From a virus (Duplodnaviria; Heunggongvirae; Uroviricota; Caudoviricetes), in the IMG/VR virus record IMGVR_UViG_3300028591_000002, positions 110,718 to 174,717 of that record: a stretch of 64,000 bases of DNA. The stretch is one strand, 5' to 3'. This document shows positions 8,385 through 64,000 of this stretch, one piece after another. Position 1 is the first letter of the stretch; each line of letters begins with the position of its first letter. The notes below the pieces were generated by a model. It made no database searches and was not told where the DNA came from. It saw only the letters and a program-made list of their open reading frames with translations. Made by a program: the position numbers and the translations under genes.

Positions 8385-9530
8385 TTAGACATAATTTTTC
8401 ACAAATTGTTGTGGTGTTAATTCTTGATTATAAGAATAATACCAATCTTCTATTGAAATTCCCTCTAATGATACCCATAAATCAAAATAAGATAAAGATG
8501 TTATCTTATAATCACCATTCATTAATACAGGAATCTTATCAAAATTATTAATACAATCCACATGAGTTAATATTATATTAAATTTCATGTGATATTTATA
8601 TTGATAATTTGATAAACAATGTCTATCAAAAGATGTTTTTAATAAAGAAAAATCAAATACTCCTCGTTTGAAAACACCTTGAATTCCAGTATCTAAATTA
8701 GAAGGTTCTTCTAAAGTAAAGTAATTTTCAAGTTCTGAAGAAAGCTGAGGTATATAACCATTACCATGTCTGGTAAGATATGGTCTCATTACAAAGAATA
8801 CTTCAGCATCATTCAATATTTCTGGATTTAATCCATTTAATCCAACTTTAGATGGAGTGCAGTTAGGCATAAATCCATGGTCCATATCCAAAAGTAATCC
8901 TTGAGAACCTTCATAAATGATTGTATCATAATCCTTTAAGAATAAAGGTTCTTCATAGAAAGAAGCATGTTCAACAAGCCATTTTATACTATCTATGAAC
9001 ATATCTTCAAACTCTTTTTCTGGAACGAACTTATGATACTCTCGTACTCCCTCTAAAAATTTCTCTGGGTCTTGAATTGCTTGTAGAAGTGTAGAATATT
9101 TAGATTCTTTACATCTTTTAAAAGTTTGATATATTCCCATTCCACAACTACCATTATTTAAATTATTGGAATCTTTAATATTAGAGAATACATCATAAGG
9201 TGTAATACATCTACAATTAAAAGAAATAGTAAGAGTTGGTATTATTCCTTTTGCTTCTAGAACTTCATATTCTTTTCTCATACAAATGGGGTCTACAAAA
9301 ACATTTTCATTAAGACAAGTATCAACGTCTAATAAAACTCCACTTCCATAAGAACTACAAATATGTTCAATACCATTATTTACTATTCTATGTCCTGCTT
9401 GAGGACCTCCAGAAAATCTTACTACAAGAGGTTTTTCTCCACGGTCAATGGCTTGTTTACAAAGCCACTGAACCGTAGAACCTTTTCCTTCATCCCCAAA
9501 AAAAGTTCCGAGGACTATTTGTTTTTTCAT
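8385..9530 (-). CDS. adenylosuccinate synthetase family protein (PurA / PurZ-like)
   Basis: N-terminal GTFFGDEGKGSTV P-loop typical of PurA (QWGDEGKGK), GGPQAGH, 381 aa. Confidence 0.8.
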   Translation of the reverse strand: MKKQIVLGTFFGDEGKGSTVQWLCKQAIDRGEKPLVVRFSGGPQAGHRIVNNGIEHICSSYGSGVLLDVDTCLNENVFVDPICMRKEYEVLEAKGIIPTLTISFNCRCITPYDVFSNIKDSNNLNNGSCGMGIYQTFKRCKESKYSTLLQAIQDPEKFLEGVREYHKFVPEKEFEDMFIDSIKWLVEHASFYEEPLFLKDYDTIIYEGSQGLLLDMDHGFMPNCTPSKVGLNGLNPEILNDAEVFFVMRPYLTRHGNGYIPQLSSELENYFTLEEPSNLDTGIQGVFKRGVFDFSLLKTSFDRHCLSNYQYKYHMKFNIILTHVDCINNFDKIPVLMNGDYKITSLSYFDLWVSLEGISIEDWYYSYNQELTPQQFVKNYV

Positions 9531-24288: not shown

Positions 24289-24318
24289 AAGTAACCGTAT
24301 TCATGACTACTATGTTTA

Positions 24319-24347
24319 GTGGAGCCTATGGGAGTCGAACCCATGTC
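24319..24347 (-). other. orphan tRNA 3'-fragment (T-arm plus acceptor 3' strand)
   Basis: tggagcctatgggagtcgaacccat, a near-identical copy of the 3' part of the 23490-23563 element; no 5' half nearby. Confidence 0.4.
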
Positions 24348-24607
24348 CAAAATAACTCAAATAAAGAAATTTAATACAGGTTTATAAATCATATAATAAA
24401 TTCTAAAATTCTCAGTGATAGTTAATGTCTCACAACATTATAAAAGTTTCTGTTACCAAGTACTTTTAAAACTCTGGCTTAGGCAGCCATGTTGAAATAA
24501 TCAATTTCAGCAGTTAATTTTAATTTGTCAAATTTAAAGACTTCAACGTGTCTACCTGATTTCTGTATTTAATATTATCTGTCAAAACCAAATAAGGCCC
24601 CGATTTG

Positions 24608-30584: not shown

Positions 30585-30633
30585 ATTCTCTCAGTTTAAT
30601 ATGTTATTAATAAATTGGGAGGATGGAAGTTGT

Positions 30634-30703
30634 GCTACGTTTTGGAATCGAACCAATTATAGAGAATTTAAAATACTCTGTGTTACCATTACACCATACG
30701 TGC
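30634..30703 (-). tRNA. tRNA-Gln-derived tRNA with UUA anticodon (ochre/amber-suppressor-like), possibly degenerate
   Basis: Body nearly identical to tRNA-Gln(TTG) at 29872 (tggtgtaatggtaacac). Anticodon arm gagta-ttTTAaa-ttctc with one U-U mismatch. The acceptor stem pairs over only 4 bp. Confidence 0.45.
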
Positions 30704-31003
30704 TAATCAAAATTACGTTTCTTATTGAAGAACAAATATATTAATTTTTTCTTTCCTAAAAAAATAATTTTTGTTAAAAAAATAGAAGAGAAATATTAAA
30801 GATACCTCAGCTTTAATTTTCCCTTCTATTGTTGGTATTTTTACCCCGTAGCATGATTATGGTATGCCCTTACCACCAACGCTTCATGTTGAACATTGGA
30901 GAAAGTCAACATCTTTGTAGATTGATGTAAACTGAGGTAGTATTTAGATTATTAAGGGGAAAGGTTATACTTTACTACATTTTTTTACCTTTCCCCTATA
31001 AAA

Positions 31004-33619: not shown

Positions 33620-34276
33620 TTATTTCTAAGTCATTATCGATGTAACTCCTATATCATAATTAGAACCTAACAAATCTTTTAAAGGGTCTTCCATTATATT
33701 CCCATGAAAGTTATGTCTAACTACCCAATCTTTTCCATTATGTAATAAGATTCCTGTATGAGTTCCTTGAGAGTATGAATTTCCTTTTCTTGATTTATAA
33801 TCCCAAGGACTTAAATTAACATACATATTAGCTACATAAGATTGTTTAGGATTTAACTTACTTATATCAAGTTTCTTTTTTAAATTTTCTGCTGCATCTA
33901 AATTATAAGAATAATGATTCTAATAGGAATTACCCTTTCTATCTTTTAAAGTAATTCCTTCATAACCATTTATATAAGGTTTAACATAATCATGAGTCCA
34001 AGCATTTCCCCCTTTTTCTCTTTTAAAATATTTATTTACAAAGTGGGCACATTGTGGACTTGTATGTTTCTAACCTGTAGGATGCATTCGATATCTTTTT
34101 CTACCTCGTGCATCTGAGTATTCTGGAGGTGCAGGCATCATTATCCCATGCATTGAAGCTCTTTTTAAAGGATTTGCTGGAGTTAACATATCTGCATATC
34201 CAGAAGCTTTCTAAATAATATTTTTTATTGCACTAAGAACATCACCTCCAAACGAATATTTATTAATTTTATTCAT
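33620..34276 (-). CDS. hypothetical hydrolase-like protein; gene contains 3 in-frame TAG codons (TAG-recoded)
   Basis: Own translation of the minus strand gives a continuous frame of about 215 codons ...MHPTG(TAG)KHTSPQCAHFVNKYF...SQGTHTGILLHNGKDWVVRHNFHGNIM... ending at TAA 33620-33622. The ORF track sees only the last 66 aa (33626..33826). The start coordinate is approximate because of the display gap. Confidence 0.55.
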
Positions 34277-34850
34277 AAGCAATTAATACTGTTTTATCGT
34301 TTTCACATTCATGACTCATACAATATTTTATAGCATTATAGGTATGCCAGCTCACTGCAAAACATCCTTCACTTGCTTTTGTGAGTGGAAAATTCATACC
34401 AGGAATATTAAATGGAAGTAACGAAGCCATAAGACTGGAATGAATGTAAATTCCTCTTTCTTCTGCATTTGAATTTGTTTCACTCCAACCTTTAAGTTTG
34501 ATGGCTTCTTCTCCATTTTCCATTCTTACAATTCCTTCCAAAGTATAAGTACCTAGTGAAGAGCATTTACTACCTATTTCATTACTGAACTCTGGTTTTG
34601 AAGAAGTACTTTTTCCACCATAACCATGTAAACATACTCCTGAGTAAATCAAGTGAGCATCAATAGAAACATCATAGATAAACAGTCTATCTTCACAAGA
34701 TGGTTTAGAGAAATCCACATGTATTTCGTAGGTACGAAAATTTGGAACTTCATCTTTTATAGGAGTCCATTCTGGTCCTTTGGGAACACAGAAGGAAATG
34801 ACTATGCCTGCAATGAAAGCAATTATAAGATATTTTAATAGTTTATTCAT
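34269..34850 (-). CDS. YkuD-like L,D-transpeptidase-fold protein, secreted
   Basis: N-terminal TM/signal; ...IYIHSS...TKASEGCFAVSW resembles the YkuD His...(S/T)xGC motif. Confidence 0.5.
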   Translation of the reverse strand: MNKLLKYLIIAFIAGIVISFCVPKGPEWTPIKDEVPNFRTYEIHVDFSKPSCEDRLFIYDVSIDAHLIYSGVCLHGYGGKSTSSKPEFSNEIGSKCSSLGTYTLEGIVRMENGEEAIKLKGWSETNSNAEERGIYIHSSLMASLLPFNIPGMNFPLTKASEGCFAVSWHTYNAIKYCMSHECENDKTVLIAYE

Positions 34851-35439
34851 TTTTATATAAATTTAACAATTTTAAATTGTATTTACAGTAATCACAAAGT
34901 TTAAATTTATTTTTAAAATTCGCTTTACCTTTAGCATCTTTCATTATACATGTCTCAACATCTTTAGAACAATGTGAAACACAATAATATGTATGTATAA
35001 ATTCGTGAATTATTACTTTCCAATAATCTCTATTTTTATTTTTTAATCTATAATCTGAAACTACACAAGTATAAGTATTAAGAATTGAAAGTCCTAAAAT
35101 TCCCCAATCATCATGATTTCTTAATGTAGTTGAAATATCATCATGTAATAATCCAATTATTATATGTTTTTTAGATGCTTTTTGCTTATACTTATTTATA
35201 ATTTTATTTCCTCTATATCTTGAATGATTTACATTATATAAATCATCAGAAAGATTTTGAGGAGATTTTATTATAAATACCGGATTTAAATTTAATTCAT
35301 TTGTTATAAATTCTTTTAATTTAGGAACTAACTCTTTAATTTCATTAATTTTAAAATTATTATATGGTTGTAGTTCTACAATTATTTTTTCATTTATAAA
35401 AGAATTTAATATTATATATGCTATTAAAATTAGTTTCAT
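34843..35439 (-). CDS. zinc metalloprotease (HExxH)
   Basis: IIHEFIHTYYC contains HEFIH; signal peptide; 8-nt overlap with the downstream gene. Confidence 0.55.
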   Translation of the reverse strand: MKLILIAYIILNSFINEKIIVELQPYNNFKINEIKELVPKLKEFITNELNLNPVFIIKSPQNLSDDLYNVNHSRYRGNKIINKYKQKASKKHIIIGLLHDDISTTLRNHDDWGILGLSILNTYTCVVSDYRLKNKNRDYWKVIIHEFIHTYYCVSHCSKDVETCIMKDAKGKANFKNKFKLCDYCKYNLKLLNLYKNE

Positions 35440-37208
35440 ATTCTATTATTATAATAGGCTTTTATCATTTTTCCTTTACTGTTCATAATACTATCAGGAT
35501 TATTTTCTCCCCAAGACATTTGCATTTTTCCATTCTTTTCTATTAATTTATTACCCTAAACTTCTGGAAGAACATATACTGTATCATTGTCATTTAATAT
35601 TTTATCATTGTACAAATGAGACATAACTCCACAATCTGGAGAAACACATCCATATGAAACTCTTTTAGATGCTTTAGAATTTTTTAATGCTTGTAATCTA
35701 CTATTACTTGCTGGACTATGTAATGCCTATCCTATTTTTCCAGGAGAATCTGGATACATTATAAACAAAGGTTCTTTTCCTAAATAGTTACTATTAGCTC
35801 TACTTTCTAAAGTAAATACTCCAGCACCAGTAGTACGTGGAGAATCTGATAAATATTTAGCATCACTATTAACCATCATATCTCCAACATTTTTTCCTAA
35901 TGTAATTGGATGTTCTTCCAAAAGTTTATCTTTTTGATAAATCTATAATTTTTGATTTACTTTATCTATTACACCGTATCTATCATTAACATTGTATTTT
36001 GATTTATGGTCCAGTATAGCCTAAAGTCCAGTATTAGGGGAATCTTCAATTTCTTTAGCTGGCTTAAATAATTTACTAATAAAAGAAATATTTGGAAACA
36101 TAGAAGACTTAATAATCTAAGGTTCATTTATCTATTTCTATGTAGATTTTCTACTAGCAGCTTCTTTTGCCATAGCTTGTCTAGTTTTAGGACCCATAAT
36201 TCCATCAACCGCTTGTTCAAAAGTAGTTCCTTCATCATAGAAGCCTCCTTTAAAAAGTCTTTCTTGAAGTCCTGCTACATTTTCAACATAATTATTTCTT
36301 CTTCTTGATTCTTTTTTAACTGCCTTATCTCTAACAGTCTTTTCGTTTTGAACTTTAGAATCTACATTATTTAAATGTTTATTAAGTGTATTATTCCAAC
36401 GAGATTCTAAATTAGTTTCATTTTGTTTTTGTTCTTCTTGAACTTTTTTCTTTTCTTCAGCATATTTTTTGAAATAATTAAACTTATCTCCATTCTATGC
36501 TTTTATTAGTCCACCTTCCTAAAAGAAAGCATGGTATATATCATTTCCTATCATACCCAATCCAAATCCATTTGAAAATTTTGAAAAATTAGACTTTTGT
36601 AATCTATTTAATCTATTTGCAGTTTTTGCCATAGGTTTAGCTAAAGGTTTATAAGCTTTTGCTCCGACTTTTGCAAGTTTACCAAGACCTCCAATAAAAG
36701 GTAATATAAAAGCCGCATCAGTTAATCCTTCTTTCCATCTTCCTTTTCTAAAATTTTTAATGGCATCATATCCAGAGATTAAAGAACCTACTGGAGTGAA
36801 ATAAGGAAGAGATTTTATTATTCCTGAAGTTAAAGCTCCTGCTATTCCTGAATTTTCTAATCTCTATAAATTGTCATCTAAACCTAATTTTTTAGCTATT
36901 CCAATTACAATATTGGCAGATAAACCTTCATCTTCTTCAGGGGTATTTTGTCCAGCATTTCTAGATACTAAACCTTTTTTTGATAATAATTTCTAACCAG
37001 CACTTGTGATTCCTTTGCTATCTTTAATTTTAATAGCTGTTCCATCTGAATTTAATTGATACTAATCTCCCAAATCATCTGTGGAAATTACACCTAATCC
37101 AATCTTCTTTCCATCTTTCTTCCAGACACCTTTTCCAAAGTAACCTTTATTACTTTTGTATCTTTCTGAGGTATCAAAGTAATAACCTTTCTAATATTTT
37201 TTAACCAT
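35436..37208 (-). CDS. peptidoglycan-binding-domain protein with YkuD-like C-terminal region; 11 in-frame TAG codons (TAG-recoded)
   Basis: Own translation: ATG at 37206-37208, 591 codons, only TAG occurs in frame, terminates at TGA overlapping the ATG of 34843..35439. Contains ...FEQAVDGIMGPKTRQAMAKEAA (PG_binding_1-like) and ...RVSYGCVSPDCGVMSH (YkuD-like). Invisible to the standard-code ORF track. Confidence 0.65.
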
Positions 37209-37290
37209 TTTTTTACTTTATTTTATTTAAAATTAAATTAATTACACTACAAACTAATGTATAAAAAATTTTTTAAAAATACAAATAAAA

Positions 37291-52682: not shown

Positions 52683-52880
52683 TAATTGTGTTTTACGCCT
52701 AAAACTTATAACCTGTATAGGAAATCTCGACGGCCCCCAACTCACTTAATGGATGGGATATTTAAGATTTTACATAAGAAAAACTGGCGTCCTCAACATC
52801 TTGGAAATCTCCATGCAGGCAGTATCCTGCGCTTCTCTTTTTGATTAGGAGATATTTTATATTGAGTTTTTAAAATGATT
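52683..52880 (-). promoter_or_regulatory. conserved ~200-nt 5' leader, copy 1 (contains hairpin gttttacgcctaaaac immediately upstream of the start codon)
   Basis: Shares the blocks ttttac(g/a)cctaaaactta, aactggcgtcctcaac...cttggaaa and tt(g/t)tattgagttttt(t)aa with 54960-55170. Confidence 0.45.
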
Positions 52881-52899
52881 CAGTAAAAAGCTTTCCGCA

Positions 52900-53130
52900 T
52901 AAAAAACCCAAATCTCATGATATGGATCCGAAATCATCATGATTTTTTTGTTTTTGCCATTATTTATAGTCCCAGAAAAACCCAATAAGGACTAGAGAAA
53001 ATGGTTCGGTAAAAGCATTATGCATGAAACCCGAACCCCCATGAATTATTCGAAACTATCATGATTTTTTGTCTTTACTGTGTTTTATAGTCCCAGAAAG
53101 ACCAAAGAAGACTCCTGCAGAGGAGGAGAT
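52900..53130. repeat. two tandem ~110-nt direct repeats
   Basis: ...catgatttttttgtttttgccattatttatagtcccagaaaaacccaataagg... vs ...catgattttttgtctttactgtgttttatagtcccagaaagaccaaagaag... Confidence 0.5.
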
Positions 53131-54360
53131 GCTTACAATAACTCTACTATTAGAAGAGAATGACTCTTAACACCATAGTAGCAGTTAATAAGGAGGATGT
53201 TTTTCTATAGGCGGCTATGTTCTTCCTGCTATTTGATGTTATCTCACAGGCCTTTTTTTACTTTCCTATAGAATCCGTTTCGTCTTAATTTGCAAAGACT
53301 CTTCAGGGAGCATCTACACTCCGACGGAAGAAAATTTCAAAGGGAAGAACTGTTTTAAATACACAGTTCTCCCCTTTCACGCGTGCCATATTTTACTTTC
53401 TCTTGAAGCAAATATGATTATACAACAAGTACAATCTCCTCAGATGATTGTTACTTTATTCTTAGCCTTGCAATCGACTAAAAATACACTACTCTTAGTA
53501 GTGGTCTCAAGCTAGTTTCGAGACTATTGCACCTAACCCTCTTGGCAAGTTAGAATCTCGCCAGTGTTAAAGAGAATTACTGGACTTTATTATTCAAATC
53601 TTTTACTGGAGCTATCAGTAATTAATTCTAGCGTGTGTTTGTCTGGAACACGCATCCTTCCATAGATAGTTCTCTATCGACGATTCCACCAGGCATTTTT
53701 GAACATTATACAAATAGTCTTGTATTGACCAAATGCTCAATAGCCTATCCCCTCGTGGACTTGGTGGAAAATTTCAGCTGATTTAAGTCGGTCAAAACTA
53801 TAGTGCTTTTAAAAAAAATGAAAAAATTTAAAATGCACTTAGGGTTTTGTGCGAACCCATTAAAATTAAAATACCATAATATTTGGAGGATAGATTAATG
53901 CCTTCTTGCCCACTATTAGGTAGTTTAGAATTTAAAAGGGAGAACATTACTGCTCTCCCTCTTCCCCCATCACCAACCTATATTATTACAGGGTAGATTG
54001 GTTCCCTATTTAAGGTGAGAAGTTTGGTATTCTCCCCTGGACTCTAGCCAGACCAATGGTTCATTGACTTACAATTATACCATCAACTTAGCACCCCTTT
54101 ACTCAAGAGGGGAAACTAAGAGCCACTATGTGAGTGAGTATCACACGCCCATCCTTCCAACACTGGGAATCCGCGTAGCAACGTTTGCACGGAAGGACTA
54201 CAACTATTTGTAGCTGTTATATGCAAACTGATATTGTTCTCTCCGCCAGAATCGGACTGGGCTTATTTTTTTCGAAGTTCCTCACCCAAGGTTTCATTAG
54301 AACTACGGGAAGCTACACCACAACTTCCTGAGAGAGAGTTTAACTTTTAAAAGTTTCCAG

Positions 54361-54390
54361 AATAAAAAAGCTCCCTCACGGTTTGGGAGC
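54361..54390 (-). terminator. rho-independent terminator (minus strand)
   Basis: agctccc-tcacggttt-gggagct hairpin with A8 on the plus side (U-run on the minus transcript). Confidence 0.6.
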
Positions 54391-54738
54391 TGTTCCAAAC
54401 ATTTGAACACGACCTCTTACAATGTACAAAGAAGGTAGTTTGGGCACTACGATACTAATATGCTGGCACACAAAAGTATTACGGAATCATCTTACTGCCA
54501 GATAAGATGAAACATTGTCCTATATTTCAAGGGAATTTACTCCTTGTCACTAACCGTAGAACTCAGATTTTTTTATTATCCAGTTAAATAGTGTGATGCT
54601 ATAAAACTTTAAGTGTATTCACCTTATTTTACATCGAATGATACACCTCGATGTTCCAGCTCGCGAACTGGATTTTGAGAGTTTTAGATACACTCCCGTT
54701 TAACACACATACTTTTCGGCAATCCAATACGGCTTTCC

Positions 54739-54951
54739 TTATGTGTGTTCTATAACCCATTTTGAACCATCCCATTTTACTGGCTTAGCACCATCGCTGA
54801 TGCCTGCGTATGTGCAGTTTACAGAATCTGATCCGTAACGGAAACAATCTGCACAATAGCATTTGCCATTATCTGGGTCAAAACATCCGTTGCCGTCATA
54901 GACATGGATAATTTTCCCATCTTGGTTAGTCCATCCCATATAATTTGCCAT
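54739..54951 (-). CDS. small Cys-rich protein (70 aa)
   Basis: MANYMGWTNQDGK...8 Cys; preceded by the conserved leader copy 2 and followed by ~340 nt of 3' UTR and the terminator. Confidence 0.4.
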   Translation of the reverse strand: MANYMGWTNQDGKIIHVYDGNGCFDPDNGKCYCADCFRYGSDSVNCTYAGISDGAKPVKWDGSKWVIEHT

Positions 54952-54959
54952 ATTTCACC

Positions 54960-55170
54960 ATAATGCGTTTTACACCTAAAACTTATTCTTTCTCATATCT
55001 GGGTATGCATCATGCAGACAGCCCGACCCGTCAATTGGAAGGAACTTAATCCTTACAACCCAATTGCTCATAGGCGAATAAGAAACTGGCGTCCTCAACG
55101 ACTTGGAAACATACATAATTTCGGTAATCCAATACTATATATGCTTTTGTATTGAGTTTTTTAATTCTTA
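54960..55170 (-). promoter_or_regulatory. conserved ~200-nt 5' leader, copy 2 (hairpin gttttacacctaaaac)
   Basis: Same conserved blocks as 52683-52880. Confidence 0.45.
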
Positions 55171-56461
55171 TAGATAATTAAATTAAGGCTGAGTGTTGAC
55201 CTTTAATGCTGTCTTTTCTATCTTTTTCAAGAATATCACACACCTAGGATTAGTAGGTAGACAACATACGGACTAGTTTTTGATAACTAGCTATCACTAC
55301 TCTCATATTATGTAGATTACTAGCTCGCTCATGGTGCTTGCGGCCAAACAGGATGCCTCCTGAACCCAGATGAGTCTACTTTCACCTTTACATTTTCCTT
55401 GCGGTACTCATGTAATCCACGTATTTCAGTGGAACAACCGTATTTTCATACGAGAGTGTACAACACTTTTGCTAACTAATGTTTTTTACAAATTAAATGC
55501 ACCAAATGCACTTTTTGTTTGCGTATAACTTTAATTAGAGCTTTGCCTGGAAGATGTGGTTGTACTTGTCACCATACTGGCTTTTGACCAGCTACAGGTG
55601 CGACACCTCCCTGTTTTCTTCTGCCACGAATACTCACTTTTAATAGTTTTATTTATCCTACCATTTCTGACTCAAGTAACCAGCTGAAGCCTCTTATTGG
55701 TTAAGAGATAGGACATTACTATTAAATTATATACTCTATTGGACTGGCAATCCTTTGGAGTATATTTATACCATATATTGTCGATGTTACCATCCAAGGT
55801 AGGTTAGCAAGACCCACCGTATACCTCTTCAACTCTGCCCGAGTATCCCAAGATATACTCATATGATATAGCTTTCAGGTGGACATTTGTTTACACAAAT
55901 GCGCATACTCTTTCTAAAGGAGCACACTTTATAGCATTACTGCTTTATCCTAAAGACACGAAGCCTGCCTCTCCATCATCCTTCACATTAATTCCGTAGA
56001 ATTGTGTGCCGACTACTTTGGACTTGTCGGGTGTAGATTTAAGAGGTTGTTCCCCCAAAAATTGAGGGAACTTATCGATTCTAGATTGTAGAAGGTATGG
56101 CAATCCACGCCATATCTCCATACTTAAGAGTTTTTCTCACAACAAATGTTGGAGGTTTTTCTTCTGATTTTAGCAATTTGTTTAGGACGTTTCGGTGTAT
56201 CCACAATAAACGTCCATTTTGTTGGAAACAAATGCTATTCCTCGACATTCTAATGATGTTCAAAGGAAAGTGGATTTCGATTATTTCCATTTTGCAAAAT
56301 GTATATTTTCGGTGTTTTGAAATATTTTTTTAGGAAAAAAAGTGGAAATTTCTGGGGGAGGATAACAGTACCAACAACCGACACTGTCCACTCAGAAATT
56401 TCCAAGAGGAATTTTCAGAAGAGAAATGATATTCTAATCAAAATCTCTCCTGAAAATAGTT

Positions 56462-56911
56462 TTACTGACGGATAATTTGAAACCATCCATTCTCCTCAGC
56501 AGTTGAAACAGGAACAGTACAAGACTCCTCATACTCGAAAACACGAGTAATAGTAAGCTTGCCATTATTATCATGATTATACCCGCCGTCATACTTACTT
56601 CTTGCTGCATCAGCCTCTTCCTGAGACTCAAAGTATTTAGTATAACCTTCAATGTAGGTGATACGGATGTTAGTTCTGTCGTCAGACAACTTTGCTCCAA
56701 GTAGCTTGATGCATTTCTCGTTCTTATTGAGATTAGCTTCAACAGCCCCTCTAGGATTAATGGTTTTAATAGCAGTTGCTATTCCCATAACCAAAGACTC
56801 TAATGCATCCTCTCCGGCTTGGCCCAATGAAAATACTGAGGCCAATCTGTCCTCGAAACGCATATTTTCCTTTGCCTGACCAATAATGAATCTTGCTAAT
56901 GACTTTCTCAT
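56462..56911 (-). CDS. hypothetical protein (GC-richer island)
   Basis: 149 aa ORF with codon composition distinct from the rest of the window. Confidence 0.5.
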   Translation of the reverse strand: MRKSLARFIIGQAKENMRFEDRLASVFSLGQAGEDALESLVMGIATAIKTINPRGAVEANLNKNEKCIKLLGAKLSDDRTNIRITYIEGYTKYFESQEEADAARSKYDGGYNHDNNGKLTITRVFEYEESCTVPVSTAEENGWFQIIRQ

Positions 56912-57201
56912 TGTAATTTCCTCCTTATTTTAGTTGGTTAAAATTCAGTTAATTTGGCAACTATGCGACGAATGTCGACCGCCCACCCACGTGAAGGTGT
57001 TGCCGTGTGGACGATTTTAGAGACCACTGTCTCAGGGAATTTCAACCCATTGTTTCACTCTAATTTCTAGACGAGGATTAAATAATACCTCGCCTAGAAC
57101 TATGAAGTCTCCCGACTTTTTGGGAAGGTTCTTGCCGAGTAAAAGGAAAGACCGCCCATCAACAGACAATCTTTTACCTTTTACTTTGCCCCTGACAGTT
57201 G

Positions 57202-57753
57202 TCAGGAAAGCTTGCAGCATGGAACTTTTACCTTGCGAACTCCCACGATTTCACCGTCACGCCAACGAGCGGACTGCACCTCAGGGGTGTTGGTAATCTC
57301 GAGAGTGTGATCGGCCAACAGCTCGATCACTTCTTTCTCTGTAGGTGACGCCATAACGGCCTCATAGAACTTCTTTTCGTCAGTGTCTCCGAGTGTACCA
57401 GCATTCTCAGCAGAGCCAGTTGGCTCAGCACTATCATTGTATACTGGCACACTCTTGTAGAGTGAGTTCAAGTATACGCCCTTAGCACCGCCATTGGCCA
57501 TAGGAAGCGAGATACAGGTGTACGTACGAGAATTGAAATTCACCTGATAGAGAAGATTCTTCAACTCGTCAAGAGTAGGAATCACAAACTTGTCTCCCTT
57601 ACGCAAGGTGGACAGGGAAACGTCAGTGATAGACTTGTTACCAAGCCCATCATAAATTGTGCTGCCACTTTGCTGGTTGGTACCAGCTGTCATACGCTTT
57701 CTCAAATTCTCAGCGGCAGATTTCTGAGAAGCGTTCAATGTAATTTTCGACAT
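57202..57753 (-). CDS. hypothetical protein (GC-richer island)
   Basis: 183 aa ORF. Confidence 0.5.
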   Translation of the reverse strand: MSKITLNASQKSAAENLRKRMTAGTNQQSGSTIYDGLGNKSITDVSLSTLRKGDKFVIPTLDELKNLLYQVNFNSRTYTCISLPMANGGAKGVYLNSLYKSVPVYNDSAEPTGSAENAGTLGDTDEKKFYEAVMASPTEKEVIELLADHTLEITNTPEVQSARWRDGEIVGVRKVKVPCCKLS

Positions 57754-57909
57754 ATACGAAATACATTTAAATTAAACATACACATAACACACACATACAA
57801 CTGCAATACATAGCCTGCAGCCGTATACATATTAGATTGTTTTACATTTGGCTACATATTCGAACCCCAATGGGTCGCCGAAGCAACCCAAGAGGTAAAA
57901 AAGTGGAGG

Positions 57910-58392
57910 CTATGCCTCCACGAAAGTAAGTGCAGATGCAGGGTAAGTTCGATTTTCCCATCTACCCACATAAGACAAACGAGCAACACGCCAACGTTGA
58001 GTAGCAGGTTTTGCACCTAAATAAGTGCAAACACTTGCATTTGTTCTATCTTCATTTCTTCTTTGCGGAAGTGCTCCCGTGAGTTCGTGAATTTCTCCCA
58101 TAGCATCCACCACACTAACAGACTTGAAAAGTCCAAGCGTAGCGTTAAATTCAACACCGTTTTGATTTTTCACTCGGACGGTGTAGTTGAGATTTTCAGA
58201 ACGAACACCGTCAAGAGTATATTCCTGAGCGTTGCACATAATCGTGCCGTCAGAGTTCCTTACGAGTTCTATTGTGTCGTTTGCTGCAAACGGACACGAA
58301 GAACGTTTTTGTGCGTCGGTATTCTGAACACCCGCACAAAAGTCAGCCCAAGTAATTTGCTTTAACTGACCTGTTAATTGAAACTTTGCCAT
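57910..58392 (-). CDS. hypothetical protein (GC-richer island)
   Basis: 160 aa ORF. Confidence 0.5.
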   Translation of the reverse strand: MAKFQLTGQLKQITWADFCAGVQNTDAQKRSSCPFAANDTIELVRNSDGTIMCNAQEYTLDGVRSENLNYTVRVKNQNGVEFNATLGLFKSVSVVDAMGEIHELTGALPQRRNEDRTNASVCTYLGAKPATQRWRVARLSYVGRWENRTYPASALTFVEA

Positions 58393-58489
58393 AATAAAAG
58401 GATTTAGAGTGAAACATTGTGGCAGAGCCGACTCGACGAGCCACCCTACCTATTACTATAGATTTTACTTACGAATTGACTACTTTTTC

Positions 58490-58522
58490 CTTACGCTGAC
58501 CCCCGGGGGGTCTAAGCGTAAG
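58490..58522. promoter_or_regulatory. large imperfect palindrome in a divergent intergenic region (candidate operator or origin element)
   Basis: cttacgctgaccccc|ggggggtctaagcgtaag. Confidence 0.4.
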
Positions 58523-58570
58523 TGTACTCTCTCCCTCGTAATTTTCAAAAAAAATTTTCTTTCTGGAATA

Positions 58571-58579
58571 GGGGGGGGG
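58571..58579. repeat. G9 homopolymer
   Basis: ggggggggg in an otherwise AT-rich intergenic region. Confidence 0.6.
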
Positions 58580-58658
58580 ATTAAGAATTGTTAACATCTA
58601 TTAACTTGTATTTAAGATTGACAAATACTATCTTTGTTTCAGTTAAAATAAAAAAGTT

Positions 58659-59000
58659 ATGAATGAAAAAGAATTAATAAAAGCGGTAATTGCACTTCTA
58701 AAATTAAATTTAGAAGAGCATACTTCAGTTAATGACAATGGAACTGAATATAGTGTAGATTTGATAGTGAAGGACAACAAATTAGACCTTCATATAGAAA
58801 AAAGAGAAGATGAATTTGAAAATTGGGTTAAAACACTTGATGACGAATTATTTCAAAATGCTTTAGAAAGAACAGTAGAAGCCTTTGATGTAGATACAGT
58901 TTCTGAAATTGAAGATAAAGAAGAATTAAAAAATGTATTTAAAAATATGGTTTCAAAGATTGCTACTGAAAGAATTGAACAATTAAAGCAATATGTTTAA
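58659..59000 (+). CDS. hypothetical acidic protein
   Basis: 113 aa ORF; one of the few plus-strand genes. Confidence 0.5.
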   Translation: MNEKELIKAVIALLKLNLEEHTSVNDNGTEYSVDLIVKDNKLDLHIEKREDEFENWVKTLDDELFQNALERTVEAFDVDTVSEIEDKEELKNVFKNMVSKIATERIEQLKQYV

Positions 59001-59265
59001 AGAAACAGCACAAGCCTTAAATGCTATTCATATTTTGGATAGAAATTTTACAGACTTATTAAATCAATGTAACGAAGTGCGAGAAGAAATTCAAGCACTT
59101 CGTTTAGAAAATGAAAAATTAAAACAAGAAATTAAATCCTTAAAATTGCCCTATGGTGTAACGGCTAGCACAGGTGGCTCTAACCCATCTGGTCTGGGTT
59201 CGAATCCTAGTGGGGCGACCAATACAGAAAAAGATGATAAAATTTTTAATGAAAGTACTGGTTAA
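58993..59265 (+). CDS. hypothetical coiled-coil protein (the 3' part is probably not coding)
   Basis: The N-terminal 50 aa look coiled-coil. The remaining frame runs through the suppressor tRNA (the GSNPSG-type translation is typical of tRNA sequence), so the true end is uncertain. Confidence 0.25.
   Translation: MFKETAQALNAIHILDRNFTDLLNQCNEVREEIQALRLENEKLKQEIKSLKLPYGVTASTGGSNPSGLGSNPSGATNTEKDDKIFNESTG
59147..59221 (+). tRNA. tRNA-Sup(CTA): amber suppressor, Gln-derived, with genomically encoded CCA
   Basis: tgcccta-tg-gtgt-aacggcta-gcac-a-ggtgg-ctCTAac-ccatc-tggt-ctggg-ttcgaat-cctag-tggggcg-a-cca. D-arm like tRNA-Gln at 29872; anticodon CTA at 59180-59182. Confidence 0.8.
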
Positions 59266-59452
59266 ACTCTTACAAAAATTATGTAACAAAATTATTAAAC
59301 GTAGTAAACTTGTTGATAAAACTGTAAGAGAATTCAATTTAGAAAATGAACAATGGTTCATAAATTGGCAAGATGAATTAAATGCAATTAGCGTAAAATA
59401 AAAAAGGTGAGCATCAAACGATGTTCACCTTTTTTCGTATTAGTCCACCTAA

Positions 59453-60595
59453 CTATTTCTTAGGAATTAATTTTATACCTTTCTTTGCTTTATTAATTTG
59501 TTTATTACCAAATGTTAATGGAATCAATGGAATTAAACCATATCTAATATCAGGATTACTAAAATTATCTCTTAATCCTAAAGGTATTCTAATACCATTG
59601 TCATCATAAGTTACTGCATCTGCAAGTTTTACTCTTCCAGATTGAGGAGGAACTATAAATGCATCTGTCCAACGTTCATTTTTTACTAAACCAGAGCCTG
59701 CCCAGTCTTTTTCTATATCTAGAGCATTATACCCTTTAGAGTCTAAAAATCTACCAATAGCTCGTTTTGCTTTTATAGCTTCTGTTTTCCAATCCTTTTT
59801 AAATGCTTCTTCAAATGCTTCTGGATTTTTTCTATATTCCAAAAGATATTGTATTCTAGTTTTTAGTTCTTCTGGCAACATTTGCAATAATTCCTTTTTA
59901 TTTTCTACTTTTAAGGGATTATTAAACTTAACATTTAAAGGTATTTGATATTCCCCAAATCCAATAGGTCTATTTGTACGTTTAGTAAATATTCCGAAAG
60001 GAGATAAAACATCTTTAGAAGAGTGTTTACCAAATGCACTGAAAGTATTAAATGGTTCTTTAGTTTCATGAAAAAATCCAGGAGTATAACCTTTGATAAT
60101 TGTATGTAAATCTCTTAATCTTTGAGCTTCTATCATATCTCCTCTTGCAATAGCAACATCTTGTACTGCTGTCCATTGTTCTGGAGTTTGTGGAAGTTTT
60201 ATAAAACTAGTTCCTTCAAAAGTTTTAACTAAACCGTCTTTATCTAAATAATATAAGACACCTTTATTTCCTGGAAGAAATCTAGGATCTCTAGCTAATC
60301 GCTATAATCCAGCTACTGTACCTCTTGTAGCTATATAATCAATTGAGTTAGATTCTGGAAATAATATTTCCCCACCTTCTGGAATTTCTTTATAAGCAGC
60401 ATCAAATAATGCCTGCTTTTCTTCTTTAGTTATTTTTCCAGGAATTTTTTCTCCATCCCAAACCCTCATATGAACTCTATATTGATTAGGATTTGGATTC
60501 TCTATTACAAACTCTCTAGGTCGAAGTTTAGTATGTGTTGGTAACCGGAGTCTTGTTATATAAGGTTCTAATATTTTAATTATTTTATTATTCAT
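59453..60595 (-). CDS. hypothetical structural/late protein, TAG-containing (joins ORFs 60302..60604 and 59453..60136)
   Basis: Own translation: the frame of ORF 60302..60604 continues through the TAG at 60302-60304 and a further TAG at 60245-60247 into 59453..60136 without TAA/TGA; ATG at 60593-60595. Confidence 0.55.
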
Positions 60596-61517
60596 AATTT
60601 CCAATTCCTACTACAGTAGCAATAACTGGAGCAGTTTTTAATAATGTTTTAAGATAAGGAACAAACTAATCTTTTAAAACTTTTTTACCAAAAAATCCAT
60701 AAGCATTACCATAAGTATTAAGTCCCATTAAATCATTAATAACGTTTGCTTCAGGTAAACTATCAACATAATCTTCAAAAAGTTTTCTATTCTATTTTAT
60801 AGATAAATCTTTTTGTCCTTTAGGATTATTAAATGCATATTTTCTAATTAATTCACCTATAGTAGACCTAGCTTCTTCTGGAAGTAATGAGTCCTCATTA
60901 AAACTATGAGTATTATTATAAGCTAATTTTAAATCTTCTAATTCTTTAGAATCTTTAAAAATTTTATTTATAAACTCTTTATATATATTATTATCTCCAG
61001 ATAATTCTCTATAAATATCATCTGTTCCATGCATATTTCTTTCATGGAAAATAATAGATGGAACATTTTTTAGAGTTCTTTGAGTAGGGTCTATAAAAGC
61101 TACTCCAGACTTAGGAAAATACGTACCCCCAACACCTTCTTCATTAAAATAACCTAAATAAGTAGGTTTTTTAAAATTATCTTCTAATATAAATTTCCTA
61201 GGAATAATTCCCTTTTCTCCTAAAGGTTTATCTAAATCATATCCTAAAGCTTCTAATCTTCTTATGGTTTCTTTTGCATGGGTTTTATTAAATCCCAAAG
61301 TATCAATTTCATACAAAGGATTAAAACTTTCCTATAAGGCTAAAGCTTTTACATTTTCAGGTAATTCTGTAATTTCTTTAGGATTTAGATATTCTTTATA
61401 TTTTGAAGCATGTTTTTCTACTAACTATTTAAAAGGAATTTGTTCTAAACCTTTACTGGTCATTGTATATTCTGGAACTCTAGATATTAATTTAAAAATA
61501 GTTTTAAATTTGCTCAT
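60588..61517 (-). CDS. hypothetical late protein, TAG-containing (includes ORF 60792..61316)
   Basis: ATG at 61515-61517 preceded by aaggagg at 61529-61535; translation MSKFKTIFKLISRVPEYTMTSKGLEQIPFK(TAG)LVEKH... runs through several TAGs into ORF 60792..61316 and ends at TAA 60588-60590, overlapping the next start. Confidence 0.55.
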
Positions 61518-61547
61518 AAATAGTTTTTCCTCCTTTTTTAGTAGCTT

Positions 61548-63053
61548 TTAAAATTTGATTCTTTTTAGTAGTTCTTCCATCCTAAAAAGATACATGAATC
61601 CAATCATAATCAAATTCATTAATTAATTGTTTAACTACAATTTCTCCTTTTAAAATCATAGATTTAATTAAATCAAATAAGACTTTATTATCTCTTTTAG
61701 AATCACTTACACTTCTAATATCAGCTGCATTTCCATAACAATGGTCACTAGTTATAGAACCTCCAACTTTTTGATTTAAAAGTTTACATCTAAATCCAGA
61801 AGATACTACTATTGATTTACCATACTTATCTCTTATAGGTTGTAATACAATCTAACATAACTTCTTTAAATTCTCCTATTGCTATTTATTTGGGGTATTA
61901 TTAATTCCCAATCTTTTAGCAGTAGGAGAATTTATTAATTCCTCTAAAGTAAAATTCTTAGTTAATAACATTTTGGAACTAATTTATATAAGGTACCTCC
62001 ATTACGATAACCTCTATTTAACATTACTCTAAATCTCTTTCTATCACTTCCACCTACTGAACCATGTATTCCAAGTTGGTTTAATTTCTATAAAGCTTCA
62101 GTTTGATTCCAAGAAGTTATTCCTAATCTATTCATAACAGCTTTCTTTAATTCTGCATCATCTTCAACAGCTCTAACTAATCCAACAGTATCTTTTACTC
62201 CTTTAGATTTAAACATTCTTCTAATATCTTTTCTAGATTGTAATGGATAATCAGAACTACTCTAAGAAGAAGAAACGTTAGTATTCTGTTGAGCTTGTTG
62301 GGTAGGTTGTAGTCTATTTATGATAGATGGATTTATCTATTGTGGAGCAGTTTCTATACTCTAGTTTCCTTCTGAAATAGGTCCATATTCTTGTGGAGAA
62401 GTTTCAACTATTTGAGGATATTCTCCAAAATCTCCATTTTCAGTACCTTCAATTTCCTCTTCTCTAGAACCTGAATGAGCAAGTAAAGGATATAAAGCTG
62501 TAGCTCCAGCTGCTGCTGCTGCATAAGGCCAAGCTCTTTTCCAAAAAGCTTTCTTTGGAACTATTTTTTCTACTGCCTTTTTTCCTGTTTTACCAGCACT
62601 TTTAGCAACTAGAGCGGTTTCCTTTTTAGCAACTGGAACTAATGCTTTCCCTTCAGGAACTCTAGTATTACTTCCAAAAGATTGTTCAAATCTTTGTGCT
62701 GGAACTTTTCCAGATTGTCCAGGAACCCAACCTTTCTATATTGCTTTATCTGCTTTTCCTTTAAATATTTTATTCAAAGCATTATTATAAGCTTCCTAAT
62801 ATTCTGGAAGAACATTTCCATTTCTACGTATTGCTGATTCTAATGCTTTTATTTCTTTAGCATCTGTTATTCCTAAATCTTCAAAAGTAATTCCACTCTT
62901 TTTTAATGCTTTATATACTTTTTTCCATTCAGGTAAATTTGACATTCCTTTTAATGCTTCTTCAAAAGCACTTAATTTACTACTAGCTTTTACTGAATTT
63001 TTAATAGCTACTTTAGCTATTCTACCCCAATGGGCTTTTGGTATTAATTTCAT
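61548..63053 (-). CDS. hypothetical late protein, TAG-containing (includes ORF 62796..63053)
   Basis: Starts at the ATG of ORF 62796..63053 (in-frame TAA just upstream); the frame continues through multiple TAGs (…GNVLPEY(TAG)EAYNNALNKIFKGKADKAI(TAG)KGWVPGQSGK...) to TAA 61548-61550. Confidence 0.5.
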
Positions 63054-63069
63054 ATGTTATAAAATTTGT

Positions 63070-64000
63070 TTGCATATTTTGCTCTTTGAATATAATTACC
63101 ATGATTTGGATTCTAAAAACCTTTAAACCTTTCAAAACCATAGCCAAAAGCATGAGAAGCTTCTCCCACTGTTTTAGCATTTCTTAAAGCCTATAAAGTT
63201 TTAGCATATGGACCATTTAATTCATTCCAAAGATAATTTAACTACGTATCTAAATCTGTCCACTTATCTCCTCCAAACTTCTTTAAGTTTGATAATCTTC
63301 CTGCATGCCACTAAGCAATACCTGCAGATGTTCCTTTGTCTCCATAAATATGGGTCCTAAATCCAGATTCTGCATAAAGGTTTCCCATAATTCCTGCAAC
63401 GGCTTCTCTAGAAAGTCCTTTACTTAAAAAGAAATTTTTAATTTTTTGTGCAGAATTTTTTGGAGTACTAATCTTAACTTCAGTATTAGACTAAGGTGTA
63501 GTAGTCTACTAAGGAATCTACTAAGAAGTCTATTGCTCAGTCTAAACAGTTGGAAATTCTACAGGAGGCATTTGAGAAATTATATATCTTCTTAATGGTG
63601 GAGTAGAACTCTAAACATTAAGATTTGGAAGATTTATTTCAGGCTATTCTACATCAATATTTTCAAATATAGAACTTAAATTTAAACCTGTCTATCCTTT
63701 CAATATTCCTCCAAACTAATGTTTCCATTTTCTTGCATTTGCAGCAAAAGTTGCTCTCTTAACTAAAGTAGGATTACCAGAAGCTTTAGCTCTAGAAATA
63801 CAAGCATTAGTTACTTTTCCTCCACAATAATCTGTAAACTTACCTCTATTCTTCTTTTTAATATGAATTCCTCCTTTTTTAAGGAATGGAATATGATATA
63901 AGTCTTGGAAAGAAGTAAAAGAATTCAAATTTTTATCTTCTTTCTTAGAGGCATTACTTAATAACTTTAAATTTTTACGATTATTTATCATCATTATAAT
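63070..64000 (-). CDS. hypothetical late protein, TAG-containing, 5' end beyond the window (includes ORF 63716..63994)
   Basis: The frame of ORF 63716..63994 continues leftwards through TAG codons; the 3' boundary is approximate (display gap in line 63601). Confidence 0.35.

Follow-up and report, generated by a model that had tools for sequence, protein, structure and literature searches.

A conserved amber suppressor tRNA cassette, probably an inverted standard-code mini-operon, at a code boundary in uncultured phages

Within a 64,000-nt stretch of viral DNA (IMG/VR record IMGVR_UViG_3300028591_000002, positions 110,718-174,717), here called the window and numbered by its own positions, a short plus-strand cassette carrying three small open reading frames (ORFs) and an amber suppressor tRNA gene (58659-59401, an island of ~0.8 kb) is embedded among minus-strand genes. 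This region probably constitutes a mini-operon written in the standard genetic code, in the order ORF1, ORF2, tRNA-Gln(CUA), ORF3, which has its own control region and lies inverted between two sets of minus-strand genes. The putative control region is the 266-bp gap (58393-58658) between the leftward gene and the cassette, whose elements were delimited in an alignment of related lineages. The cassette also occurs in uncultured phages of no fewer than six further lineages, and the unit is conserved and is judged clearly functional.

The tRNA gene, with the anticodon CUA, was placed at 59147-59221 on the plus strand by both ARAGORN and Rfam (tRNA model, 51.3 bits versus a gathering score of 29), in agreement with an initial annotation of this DNA. 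It is the sole plus-strand gene among the tRNA and tmRNA genes predicted by these two means; the 28 further tRNA/tmRNA genes given by ARAGORN (one of them a doubtful permuted tmRNA) all lie on the minus strand. Its D-arm (ATGGTGTAACGGCTAGCACA) is that of the phage tRNA-Gln(UUG) except for one substitution and one inserted base, A73 is common to the two tRNAs, and in BLAST comparisons the gene is 85-91% identical to crAss-like genes annotated as tRNA-Gln. The gene is present in all relatives, with compensatory changes in the anticodon stem; CCA is encoded in the window but not in the relatives L027, L009, and L015. The tRNA is judged to be real and under selection, and to be a glutamine-type amber suppressor with predicted glutamine charging. 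(The pyrrolysine label 'Pyl', which ARAGORN prints for any CTA anticodon, is probably no more than a name. The sequence agrees with the general model for tRNAs and with genes for tRNA-Gln, and TAG is aligned with Q; the products scanned against Pfam and PHROGs, which represent part of the window genes, included no pyl genes.) A separate suppressor-like tRNA with the anticodon TTA (ochre) and a Gln-type D-arm is found at 30632-30704 on the minus strand (35 bits in Rfam). Despite this tRNA, TAA is still the commonest stop codon, ending 30 of 53 genes.

The cassette stands exactly where the use of TAG changes. Read with TAG as a sense codon, the window shows long ORFs at 33620-37217 and over 59414-64000, and the five minus-strand genes to the right of the cassette contain 2-15 in-frame TAGs each. 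From left to right, these are a 393-aa gene (59453-60637), whose relatives carry an ART-PolyVal domain (PF18760), a 309-aa gene, a Peptidase_M15_3 endolysin (61504-61983), a 363-aa gene, and a Phage_lysozyme2 gene (63050-64000). Compared with the L013 orthologues, the in-frame TAG positions correspond mostly to TAG or Q, and then to E. The left-flank genes, which have a GC content of 0.40-0.48, either lack in-frame TAG or have just one, which is best taken as the stop codon. Scoring of the flanks in the window, L009, L013, L015, and L034 gave 0-1 in-frame TAG for left genes and 2-20 for right genes, and in every lineage with scorable flanks the left flank is GC-rich and free of TAG, and the right flank TAG-rich. 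The cassette ORFs themselves have no in-frame TAG in the window or in the relatives, except for one in ORF3 of L013. The initial annotation had described the tRNA as facing away from the TAG-rich genes. The opposite geometry is found: because the minus-strand genes that resume at 59453 are the TAG-rich ones, the tRNA converges on this block of five genes to its right.

The relatives (L009-L015, L027, L034-L036) were identified through homologues of ORF1 (62-99% identity), together with a profile search for the distant ones. They share a common layout, in which minus-strand genes and a gap of ~270-370 bp are followed by plus-strand ORF1, ORF2, tRNA(CTA), and ORF3; the distant L034-L036 have one or two additional small ORFs in the cassette. 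In every relative contig that reaches far enough, a terminator and then more minus-strand genes follow. Scans of IMG/VR gave no relatives, whether made with the palindrome, the TTAAC block, the promoter geometry described below, or two proteins, and neither did a scan of GTDB genomes with the ORF1 profile. The 393-aa neighbor was tried as an anchor for finding relatives and proved poor, being a mobile ART-PolyVal-type domain in unrelated contexts. Its family is widespread, with members in many unrelated phage contexts and once beside a Gln/Sup tRNA pair (L008).

The window itself recurs without any difference in a 178,305-bp metagenome contig (ENA ERZ27256846 k141_307136), and an 11-kb Logan contig from another run (SRR8436538) is 100% identical to window positions 52782-63863. 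Several related contigs originate from STEW19-labelled cattle-rumen assemblies, and the samples that could be placed are all cattle rumen. The sequence, with a GC content of ~30%, looks like that of a large phage; it encodes DnaB-like and DEAD-box helicases and a homologue of adenylosuccinate synthetase. Shine-Dalgarno motifs are almost missing (just 4 of 53 genes), which points to a Bacteroidota-like host.

The proteins of the cassette are small and resemble little else. ORF1 (58659-59000, plus strand) encodes an acidic protein of 113 aa without an in-frame TAG, and its family is small (~15 clusters at 50% identity). The structure predicted for it is of low confidence (pLDDT 69), and Foldseek found nothing in the PDB at E <= 0.001. 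Significant matches in Pfam or PHROGs are absent for all of ORF1-3, and ORF2 and ORF3 show only a weak DivIC-like coiled-coil signal. ORF2 (58993-59265, plus strand) begins with a conserved coiled coil of 51 aa (58993-59145), after which its frame is open through the tRNA. Over these first 51 codons, it differs from L009 by 8 synonymous changes and 1 non-synonymous change; both ORF2 and ORF3 are under purifying selection. The start of ORF2 overlaps the stop of ORF1 via ATGTTTAA, which suggests that their translation is coupled. In L013, L014, and L034, a stop codon closes ORF2 immediately ahead of the tRNA; the window, L027, L009, and L015 have lost this stop, and the frame crosses the tRNA. 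Consequently, the run of ORF2 through the tRNA is taken to be a derived state. A conserved hairpin with a 10-bp stem (59071-59104, plus strand; -17.3 kcal/mol) lies inside ORF2, ~45 nt upstream of the tRNA, and is a possible processing or pausing site. ORF3 (59249-59401, plus strand) encodes 50 aa with the conserved C-terminus LENEQWF(I/L)(N/D)WQDELNAISVK. A direct repeat surrounds the tRNA (59103-59119 and 59338-59354), which raised the idea of a tRNA inserted into a pre-existing gene. This idea was dropped because every lineage conserves ORF2 and ORF3 as separate units; in the distant lineages, extra ORFs lie between them.

The cassette ends at a bidirectional intrinsic terminator (59400-59435), A6-GGTGAGCATC-AAAC-GATGTTCACC-T6, with a folding energy of -21.2 kcal/mol. 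On either strand this sequence is a hairpin followed by a T-run, and it is predicted to end both the plus-strand cassette and the converging TAG-rich minus-strand block. It is kept in L009, L014, and L015, while L034 has a different hairpin and T-run in the same place. The region had initially been described as a strand switch. Plus-strand ORF1 does start at 58659, but the switch is only local: minus-strand genes restart at 59453 and continue to ~64000, and the genes turn permanently to the plus strand only beyond ~64000. The true divergent switch lies at ~64.0-64.1 kb. At this divergent gap, two perfect Bacteroidota-type promoters (TTTG-N19/20-TAnnTTTG) stand back to back at ~64028-64047 (L001 15370-15391), an arrangement that is kept in L013.

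Transcription of the cassette would start from a promoter of the type used by the likely host. The consensus for the primary sigma factor of Bacteroidota is reportedly a -33 TTTG and a -7 TAnnTTTG element, 19-21 nt apart. Upstream of ORF1, an exact -7 box TATCTTTG is found on the plus strand at 58629-58636, 22 nt before the ATG, and 20 nt before this box is a cTTG sequence (58605-58608, plus strand) that matches the -33 element at three of four positions. Thus both boxes and the spacing are present, and cTTG-N20-TATCTTTG is the predicted promoter. The -7 box, as TAT(A/C)TTTG, and the -33/-7 geometry are kept in all lineages. This two-box pattern appears to be in use in the phage: its perfect minus-strand matches (TTTG-N19-21-TAnnTTTG) number three, and all three lie in intergenic gaps upstream of minus-strand genes. 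The -33 element is contained in a near-invariant block of 40 nt, ATTAAGAATTGTTAACATCTATTAACTTGTATTTAAGATT (58580-58619, plus strand), which also has two TTAAC repeats 11 bp apart. The geometry TTAACA-N5-TTAACTTG is retained in L034-L036. This block is likely to bind a regulator or to act as an UP-like element, in addition to contributing part of the core promoter.

The remaining elements of the gap lie upstream of this block. The palindrome, the C-box, the TTAAC block, and the promoter-like block at the left of the gap each occur once in the window, so these elements are neither a repeated phage promoter nor a PeSL-like shuffling element. A de novo k-mer search for a promoter motif shared among 45 intergenic gaps recovered only T-rich terminator tails, and an Rfam scan of the gap at a relaxed threshold found nothing besides the tRNA. 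Most conspicuous is a GC-rich palindrome of 33 nt, CTTACGCTGACCCCCGGGGGGTCTAAGCGTAAG (58490-58522), which the initial annotation had reported. It is present, but it is imperfect, consisting of an outer stem of 8 bp, a bulge of 2 nt, and a GC stem of 6 bp closed by a 3-nt loop, and a motif search of the kind proposed in that annotation located no other copy in the window. It forms the most stable local 40-nt hairpin of the 64 kb (-21.8 kcal/mol), and its DNA fold has a z-score of -4.6 relative to shuffled sequences. An intrinsic terminator was ruled out, given that no T-run follows the hairpin on either strand. The pairing is kept despite changed sequence in L013/L015 (CTTATGCGT/ACGCATAAG) and in L009 (CGTCGG/CCGACG). 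A mini-ORF with an in-frame TAG in the hairpin was considered as a suppression sensor and rejected, as it occurs only in L013/L015 and is absent from the window and L009. Next to the hairpin is a pyrimidine-rich C-box, TGTACTCTCTCCCTCGTAA (58523-58541), which every lineage conserves, the distant ones included, and which is able to pair with the G run that follows. An AT-rich spacer (58542-58570) separates the two; it is 29 nt long here and ~46-72 nt in relatives, and it contains one or two TCAAAAAT motifs.

It is possible, if doubtful, that the palindrome and the C-box belong instead to the leftward unit. A promoter TTGAAA-N16-TACACT (minus strand, 58548-58521), immediately to the right of the hairpin, would then produce an mRNA that begins with the hairpin, and this stem-loop would shield the message of the GC-rich genes without TAG (57910-58392 and beyond) against decay that depends on the 5' end. 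On the minus strand, TTGA(A/T)A and TACACT hexamers with a spacing of 16 nt are indeed found in the window, L009, L013, and L015, and the pairing of the hairpin is held while its sequence shifts, as would be the case for an RNA or single-stranded element. Furthermore, the fold of the gap is more unusual on the minus strand (z -3.3) than on the plus strand (z -1.7), and a Bacteroidota-type promoter for the left gene was not found in the gap. However, Bacteroidota RNA polymerase (RNAP) does not use -35/-10 elements of the σ70 type, and the clear promoters of this phage are of the TTTG/TAnnTTTG kind. Conservation is also highest in the C-box, the would-be spacer, and not in the hexamers. In L009, replacement has affected the left gene together with the adjoining half of the gap, but the hairpin and C-box stay with the cassette, and the distant lineages retain the C-box rather than the hairpin. 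The reading preferred here is that palindrome, C-box, G run, and TTAAC block most likely set or regulate the activity of the cassette promoter.

The G run is a G9 homopolymer at 58571-58579 (plus strand), where the initial annotation had noted it, and is the only G or C run of at least 7 in the window. Runs of this length in promoter regions recall the phase-variable homopolymers of Bordetella fim (poly-C) and Neisseria porA/opc (poly-G), in which the tract lies in the -10/-35 spacer or, at fixed phasing, in the interval between activator and core promoter. By analogy, the G run might be a slipped-strand switch: gain or loss of G's would alter the spacing or phasing between C-box/hairpin and the promoter of the TTAAC block, so that the supply of suppressor and the outcome of infection differ among virions. 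As with the Bordetella and Neisseria tracts, the promoter region here has a G run of 8-10 nt that varies in length among close strains, insofar as assemblies can be compared. It occupies the same position in all close lineages and is G9 in the window, G8 in L013, and G10 in L009, L015, and L027, a strain only 4% diverged (96% identical). Such a run is also unexpected in DNA of 30% GC (a G9 arises in 4 of 100 shuffles), and one contig (L012) ends within it while four others end within ~90 nt. Other features fit phase variation poorly, and this explanation is considered improbable. Unlike the Bordetella and Neisseria tracts, the G run is upstream of the conserved block, ~64-72 nt from the predicted start and outside the core promoter, and it lies beside a very variable spacer; because this spacer ranges from 29 to ~72 nt among relatives, precise phasing is not conserved. 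The same G9 was obtained in two independent assemblies, and the lengths that differ between assemblies could be consensus errors at a homopolymer. In L034/L035, a CCCC(CC)(A)GGGGGG palindrome replaces the G run upstream of the TTAAC block. Within the favored regulatory reading, the G run would act together with its neighbors on the cassette promoter.

The initial annotation had also offered the gap as a replication origin. Such a site, or one for packaging or recombination, could be built from a GC hairpin, an AT-rich unwinding stretch, and a G run that stabilizes R-loops, and the gap does contain the strongest hairpin of the window and an AT-rich stretch between GC-rich clamps, with TCAAAAAT repeats in relatives. 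GC skew, the check named in that annotation, was calculated over the 69 kb that could be read of the 178-kb genome and speaks against an origin at this site. It is negative through the window and positive solely at 58.5-59.5 kb, a blip of only ~1 kb that corresponds to the plus-strand cassette, after which it declines again; the cumulative minimum is elsewhere, at ~64.0 kb. Given that this minimum coincides with the true divergence of genes, ~64.03 kb is the better candidate for an origin. The single-copy state of the palindrome, C-box, and TTAAC block likewise counts against an origin or packaging site in the gap.

What might favor a packaging or recombination site is that five contigs from other samples (L005, L010, L011, L012, L014) terminate inside the 266-bp gap, and that the break in homology in L009 marks a mosaic boundary. 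But these ends are scattered over ~130 nt, and a drop in coverage or branching of the assembly graph explains them equally well. The ends are attributed to loss of coverage at the poly-G/hairpin together with graph branching at the mosaic boundary; both the ENA contig and the Logan contig L002 read through the gap uninterrupted. An origin, packaging, or recombination site in the gap is thus regarded as highly improbable.

The pathway proposed for the cassette runs as follows. RNAP of a Bacteroidota-type host would initiate at cTTG-N20-TATCTTTG (58605-58636), read through the ORFs and the tRNA, and end at 59400-59435. The tRNA would be excised from this transcript, receive CCA where this is unencoded, and be charged with glutamine by the host GlnRS. 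It would then decode in-frame UAG in the right-hand genes, such as those for the ART-PolyVal-like protein, the M15 endolysin, and the tail-lysozyme-like protein, as well as in the cluster at 33.6-37.2 kb. The right-hand genes lie behind their own perfect host-type promoter at ~64.03 kb, and consequently they should be transcribable without phage factors; their full translation would await the build-up of suppressor, which would amount to a translational licence. The original proposal of a control point at which expression of the suppressor licenses late genes is thereby kept in part. What stands is that the suppressor has its own oppositely oriented unit, with a conserved promoter-like region and a terminator, at the border between codes; the geometry and the origin that went with the proposal do not. 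A more elaborate scheme is speculative and improbable. In this scheme, ORF1-3, which accompany the tRNA in every lineage, would be co-factors of suppression (antagonists of RF1, or helpers in tRNA processing or charging), and the cassette would be a self-timed code switch whose rate is set by the hairpin/C-box/G-run array. Where ORF2 is without its stop, as in most lineages, the passage of ribosomes and the maturation of the tRNA would be mutually exclusive for each transcript, and excision of the tRNA would leave a stop-less ORF2 mRNA as a possible substrate for the phage tmRNA.

Translational licensing by a suppressor has already been proposed for recoded gut phages, and the present unit fits that proposal; new here would be the inverted arrangement, the partners without recognizable family, and the constrained upstream region. 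The 'code change module' of stop-codon-recoded gut phages (Jade phages, Fig. S6 of Borges et al., bioRxiv 10.1101/2021.08.26.457843) is in the standard code, lies beside a recoded lysis cassette, and has been proposed to act as a translation gate. Like that module, the unit described here places a suppressor tRNA in a standard-code setting directly beside recoded genes of the lysis type. It differs in that it recodes TAG to glutamine, that its partners are three small proteins without family match in place of a synthetase or release factor, that it runs in the opposite direction to the recoded block and has a terminator in common with it, and that its upstream region is unusually constrained. 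Suppressor tRNA-Gln(CUA) genes are also known from crAss-like phages that use genetic code 15 (Peters et al. 2022, PMC9523058). These share with the present tRNA the anticodon, the inferred glutamine identity, and a likely Bacteroidota host. However, in the crAss-like contigs L029-L033 the tRNA is on the same strand as the downstream TAG-containing genes, mostly right after tRNA-like sequences, and there is no inverted mini-operon with a control region to itself. On this comparison, the inverted mini-operon is confined to the present clade.

Several observations weigh against the reading of the region as a regulated suppressor operon. At -33 the sequence reads CTTG in place of TTTG, and bare TAnnTTTG is not enriched in the AT-rich window, being informative only as part of the spaced two-box pattern; weak σ70-like matches are present on both strands of the gap as well. 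A significant hairpin is missing from the distant L034/L035, and so the hairpin cannot be essential to the cassette. The second TAG-rich cluster (33.6-37.2 kb) lies 22 kb from the cassette, and because of this distance, adjacency to the tRNA must be dispensable for suppression. The cassette also differs from the Jade module of Borges et al. in having no release factor or aminoacyl-tRNA synthetase. Finally, each step from the start of transcription through co-transcription and processing to timing, as well as the regulatory role of hairpin, C-box, and G run, is a prediction.

The leftward side of the gap has elements of its own. A 21-nt motif, CAATGTTTCACTCTAAATCCT (58399-58419, minus strand), ends 6 nt before the ATG at 58392 and may serve the leftward gene as an operator or as an element of its 5' UTR. 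Its core, AGTGAAACA-TGTGG, is kept in L013, L015, and L027, and an inverted second copy at 57048-57068 matches at 18 of 21 positions, with the exact 13-mer TGTTTCACTCTAA; the pair brackets two GC-rich genes. Further into the gap, two conserved blocks, CCCTACCTATTnnTATAGAT and TTGACTAC (58444-58483, minus strand), lie on either side of a 12-nt stretch that varies in sequence but not in length, and contain a weak σ70-like pair of minus-strand hexamers, TAGTCA-N16-TATAGT. These blocks go with the family of the left gene and are missing from L009. An exact 19-mer, GTTAACATCTATTAACTTG, is also found in an unrelated, GC-richer family (L016-L026; ERZ17400xx, JAAUYB, JAAUYD), whose sequences are conserved over several hundred bases. 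The sharing is taken as chance, since nhmmer detected no wider similarity, and Rfam matched no family at five of these loci (L016-L019, L021).

The left gene itself (57910-58392, minus strand; GC 0.44) encodes 160 aa in the standard code, or 186 aa if its TAG is read through. A family search gave no match for it, and an orthologue with 27% identity is present in L015. Its TAG stop sits in the loop of the gene's own intrinsic terminator (57903-57921; GTGGAGGCATAGCCTCCAC followed by T6). In L005, a 98%-identical rumen contig, a 26-nt deletion takes out precisely this hairpin and the stop. Beyond this gene, the region 56462-58392 and the left flanks of L009, L013, L015, L034, and L036 consist of TAG-free genes with a GC content of 0.40-0.53, compared with ~30% for the genome, and this state is shared by all relatives. 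No family matches were found for the genes of 56462-58392, and no Bacteroidota-type promoter was recognized 5' of the first GC-rich left gene.

Other parts of the window have features that bear on the phage in general. Its tmRNA (24317-24601, minus strand; 72.5 bits) lies inside the tRNA array and has the tag peptide AEIDYFNMAA. The tRNA predicted at 46431-46507 (minus strand) has an 8-nt anticodon loop (ttca), and a separate Rfam tRNA match at 43805-43972 (minus strand) spans 168 nt and may contain an insertion or intron. Phages that replace adenine with 2-aminoadenine use a PurZ-type enzyme resembling adenylosuccinate synthetase. The homologue of this synthetase in the window (8385-9530, minus strand; Pfam E = 3e-33) may be an enzyme of this PurZ kind or a PurA. 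In the region 52700-56400, where the GC content is 37-40%, ~3.5 kb lack any ORF of at least 150 aa under any reading of the stop codons. A full-length match to GOLLD RNA lies there on the minus strand (55186-55611; 95.3 bits at a relaxed Rfam threshold, with a gathering score of 150 and E = 1e-24); no GOLLD match was found in the portions of the relatives' contigs that were scanned. Direct repeats at 52687-52874 and 54964-55164, spaced by ~2290 nt, point tentatively to another large RNA related to the first. A type III hammerhead ribozyme candidate is found at 53272-53330 (minus strand; 39.4 bits, gathering score 48.5, E = 5e-6) within the same ORF-free region.

For annotation, the region teaches that an ORF called through a tRNA, as ORF2 is, and the calling of a whole contig in a single code may both mislead. 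For the biology of these phages, it bears on how recoding is timed. Stop-codon recoding in phages is thought to time the expression of late and lysis genes, and control of the suppressor itself has been almost unstudied. This clade offers a compact test case, in which one tRNA, one 0.8-kb unit, a host-type promoter, a highly conserved upstream region, and three partner proteins lie together at the border between coding regimes. If the unit is regulated, the switch would naturally be sought there; with constitutive expression, timing would have to come from the accumulation of the tRNA or from competition with release factor.

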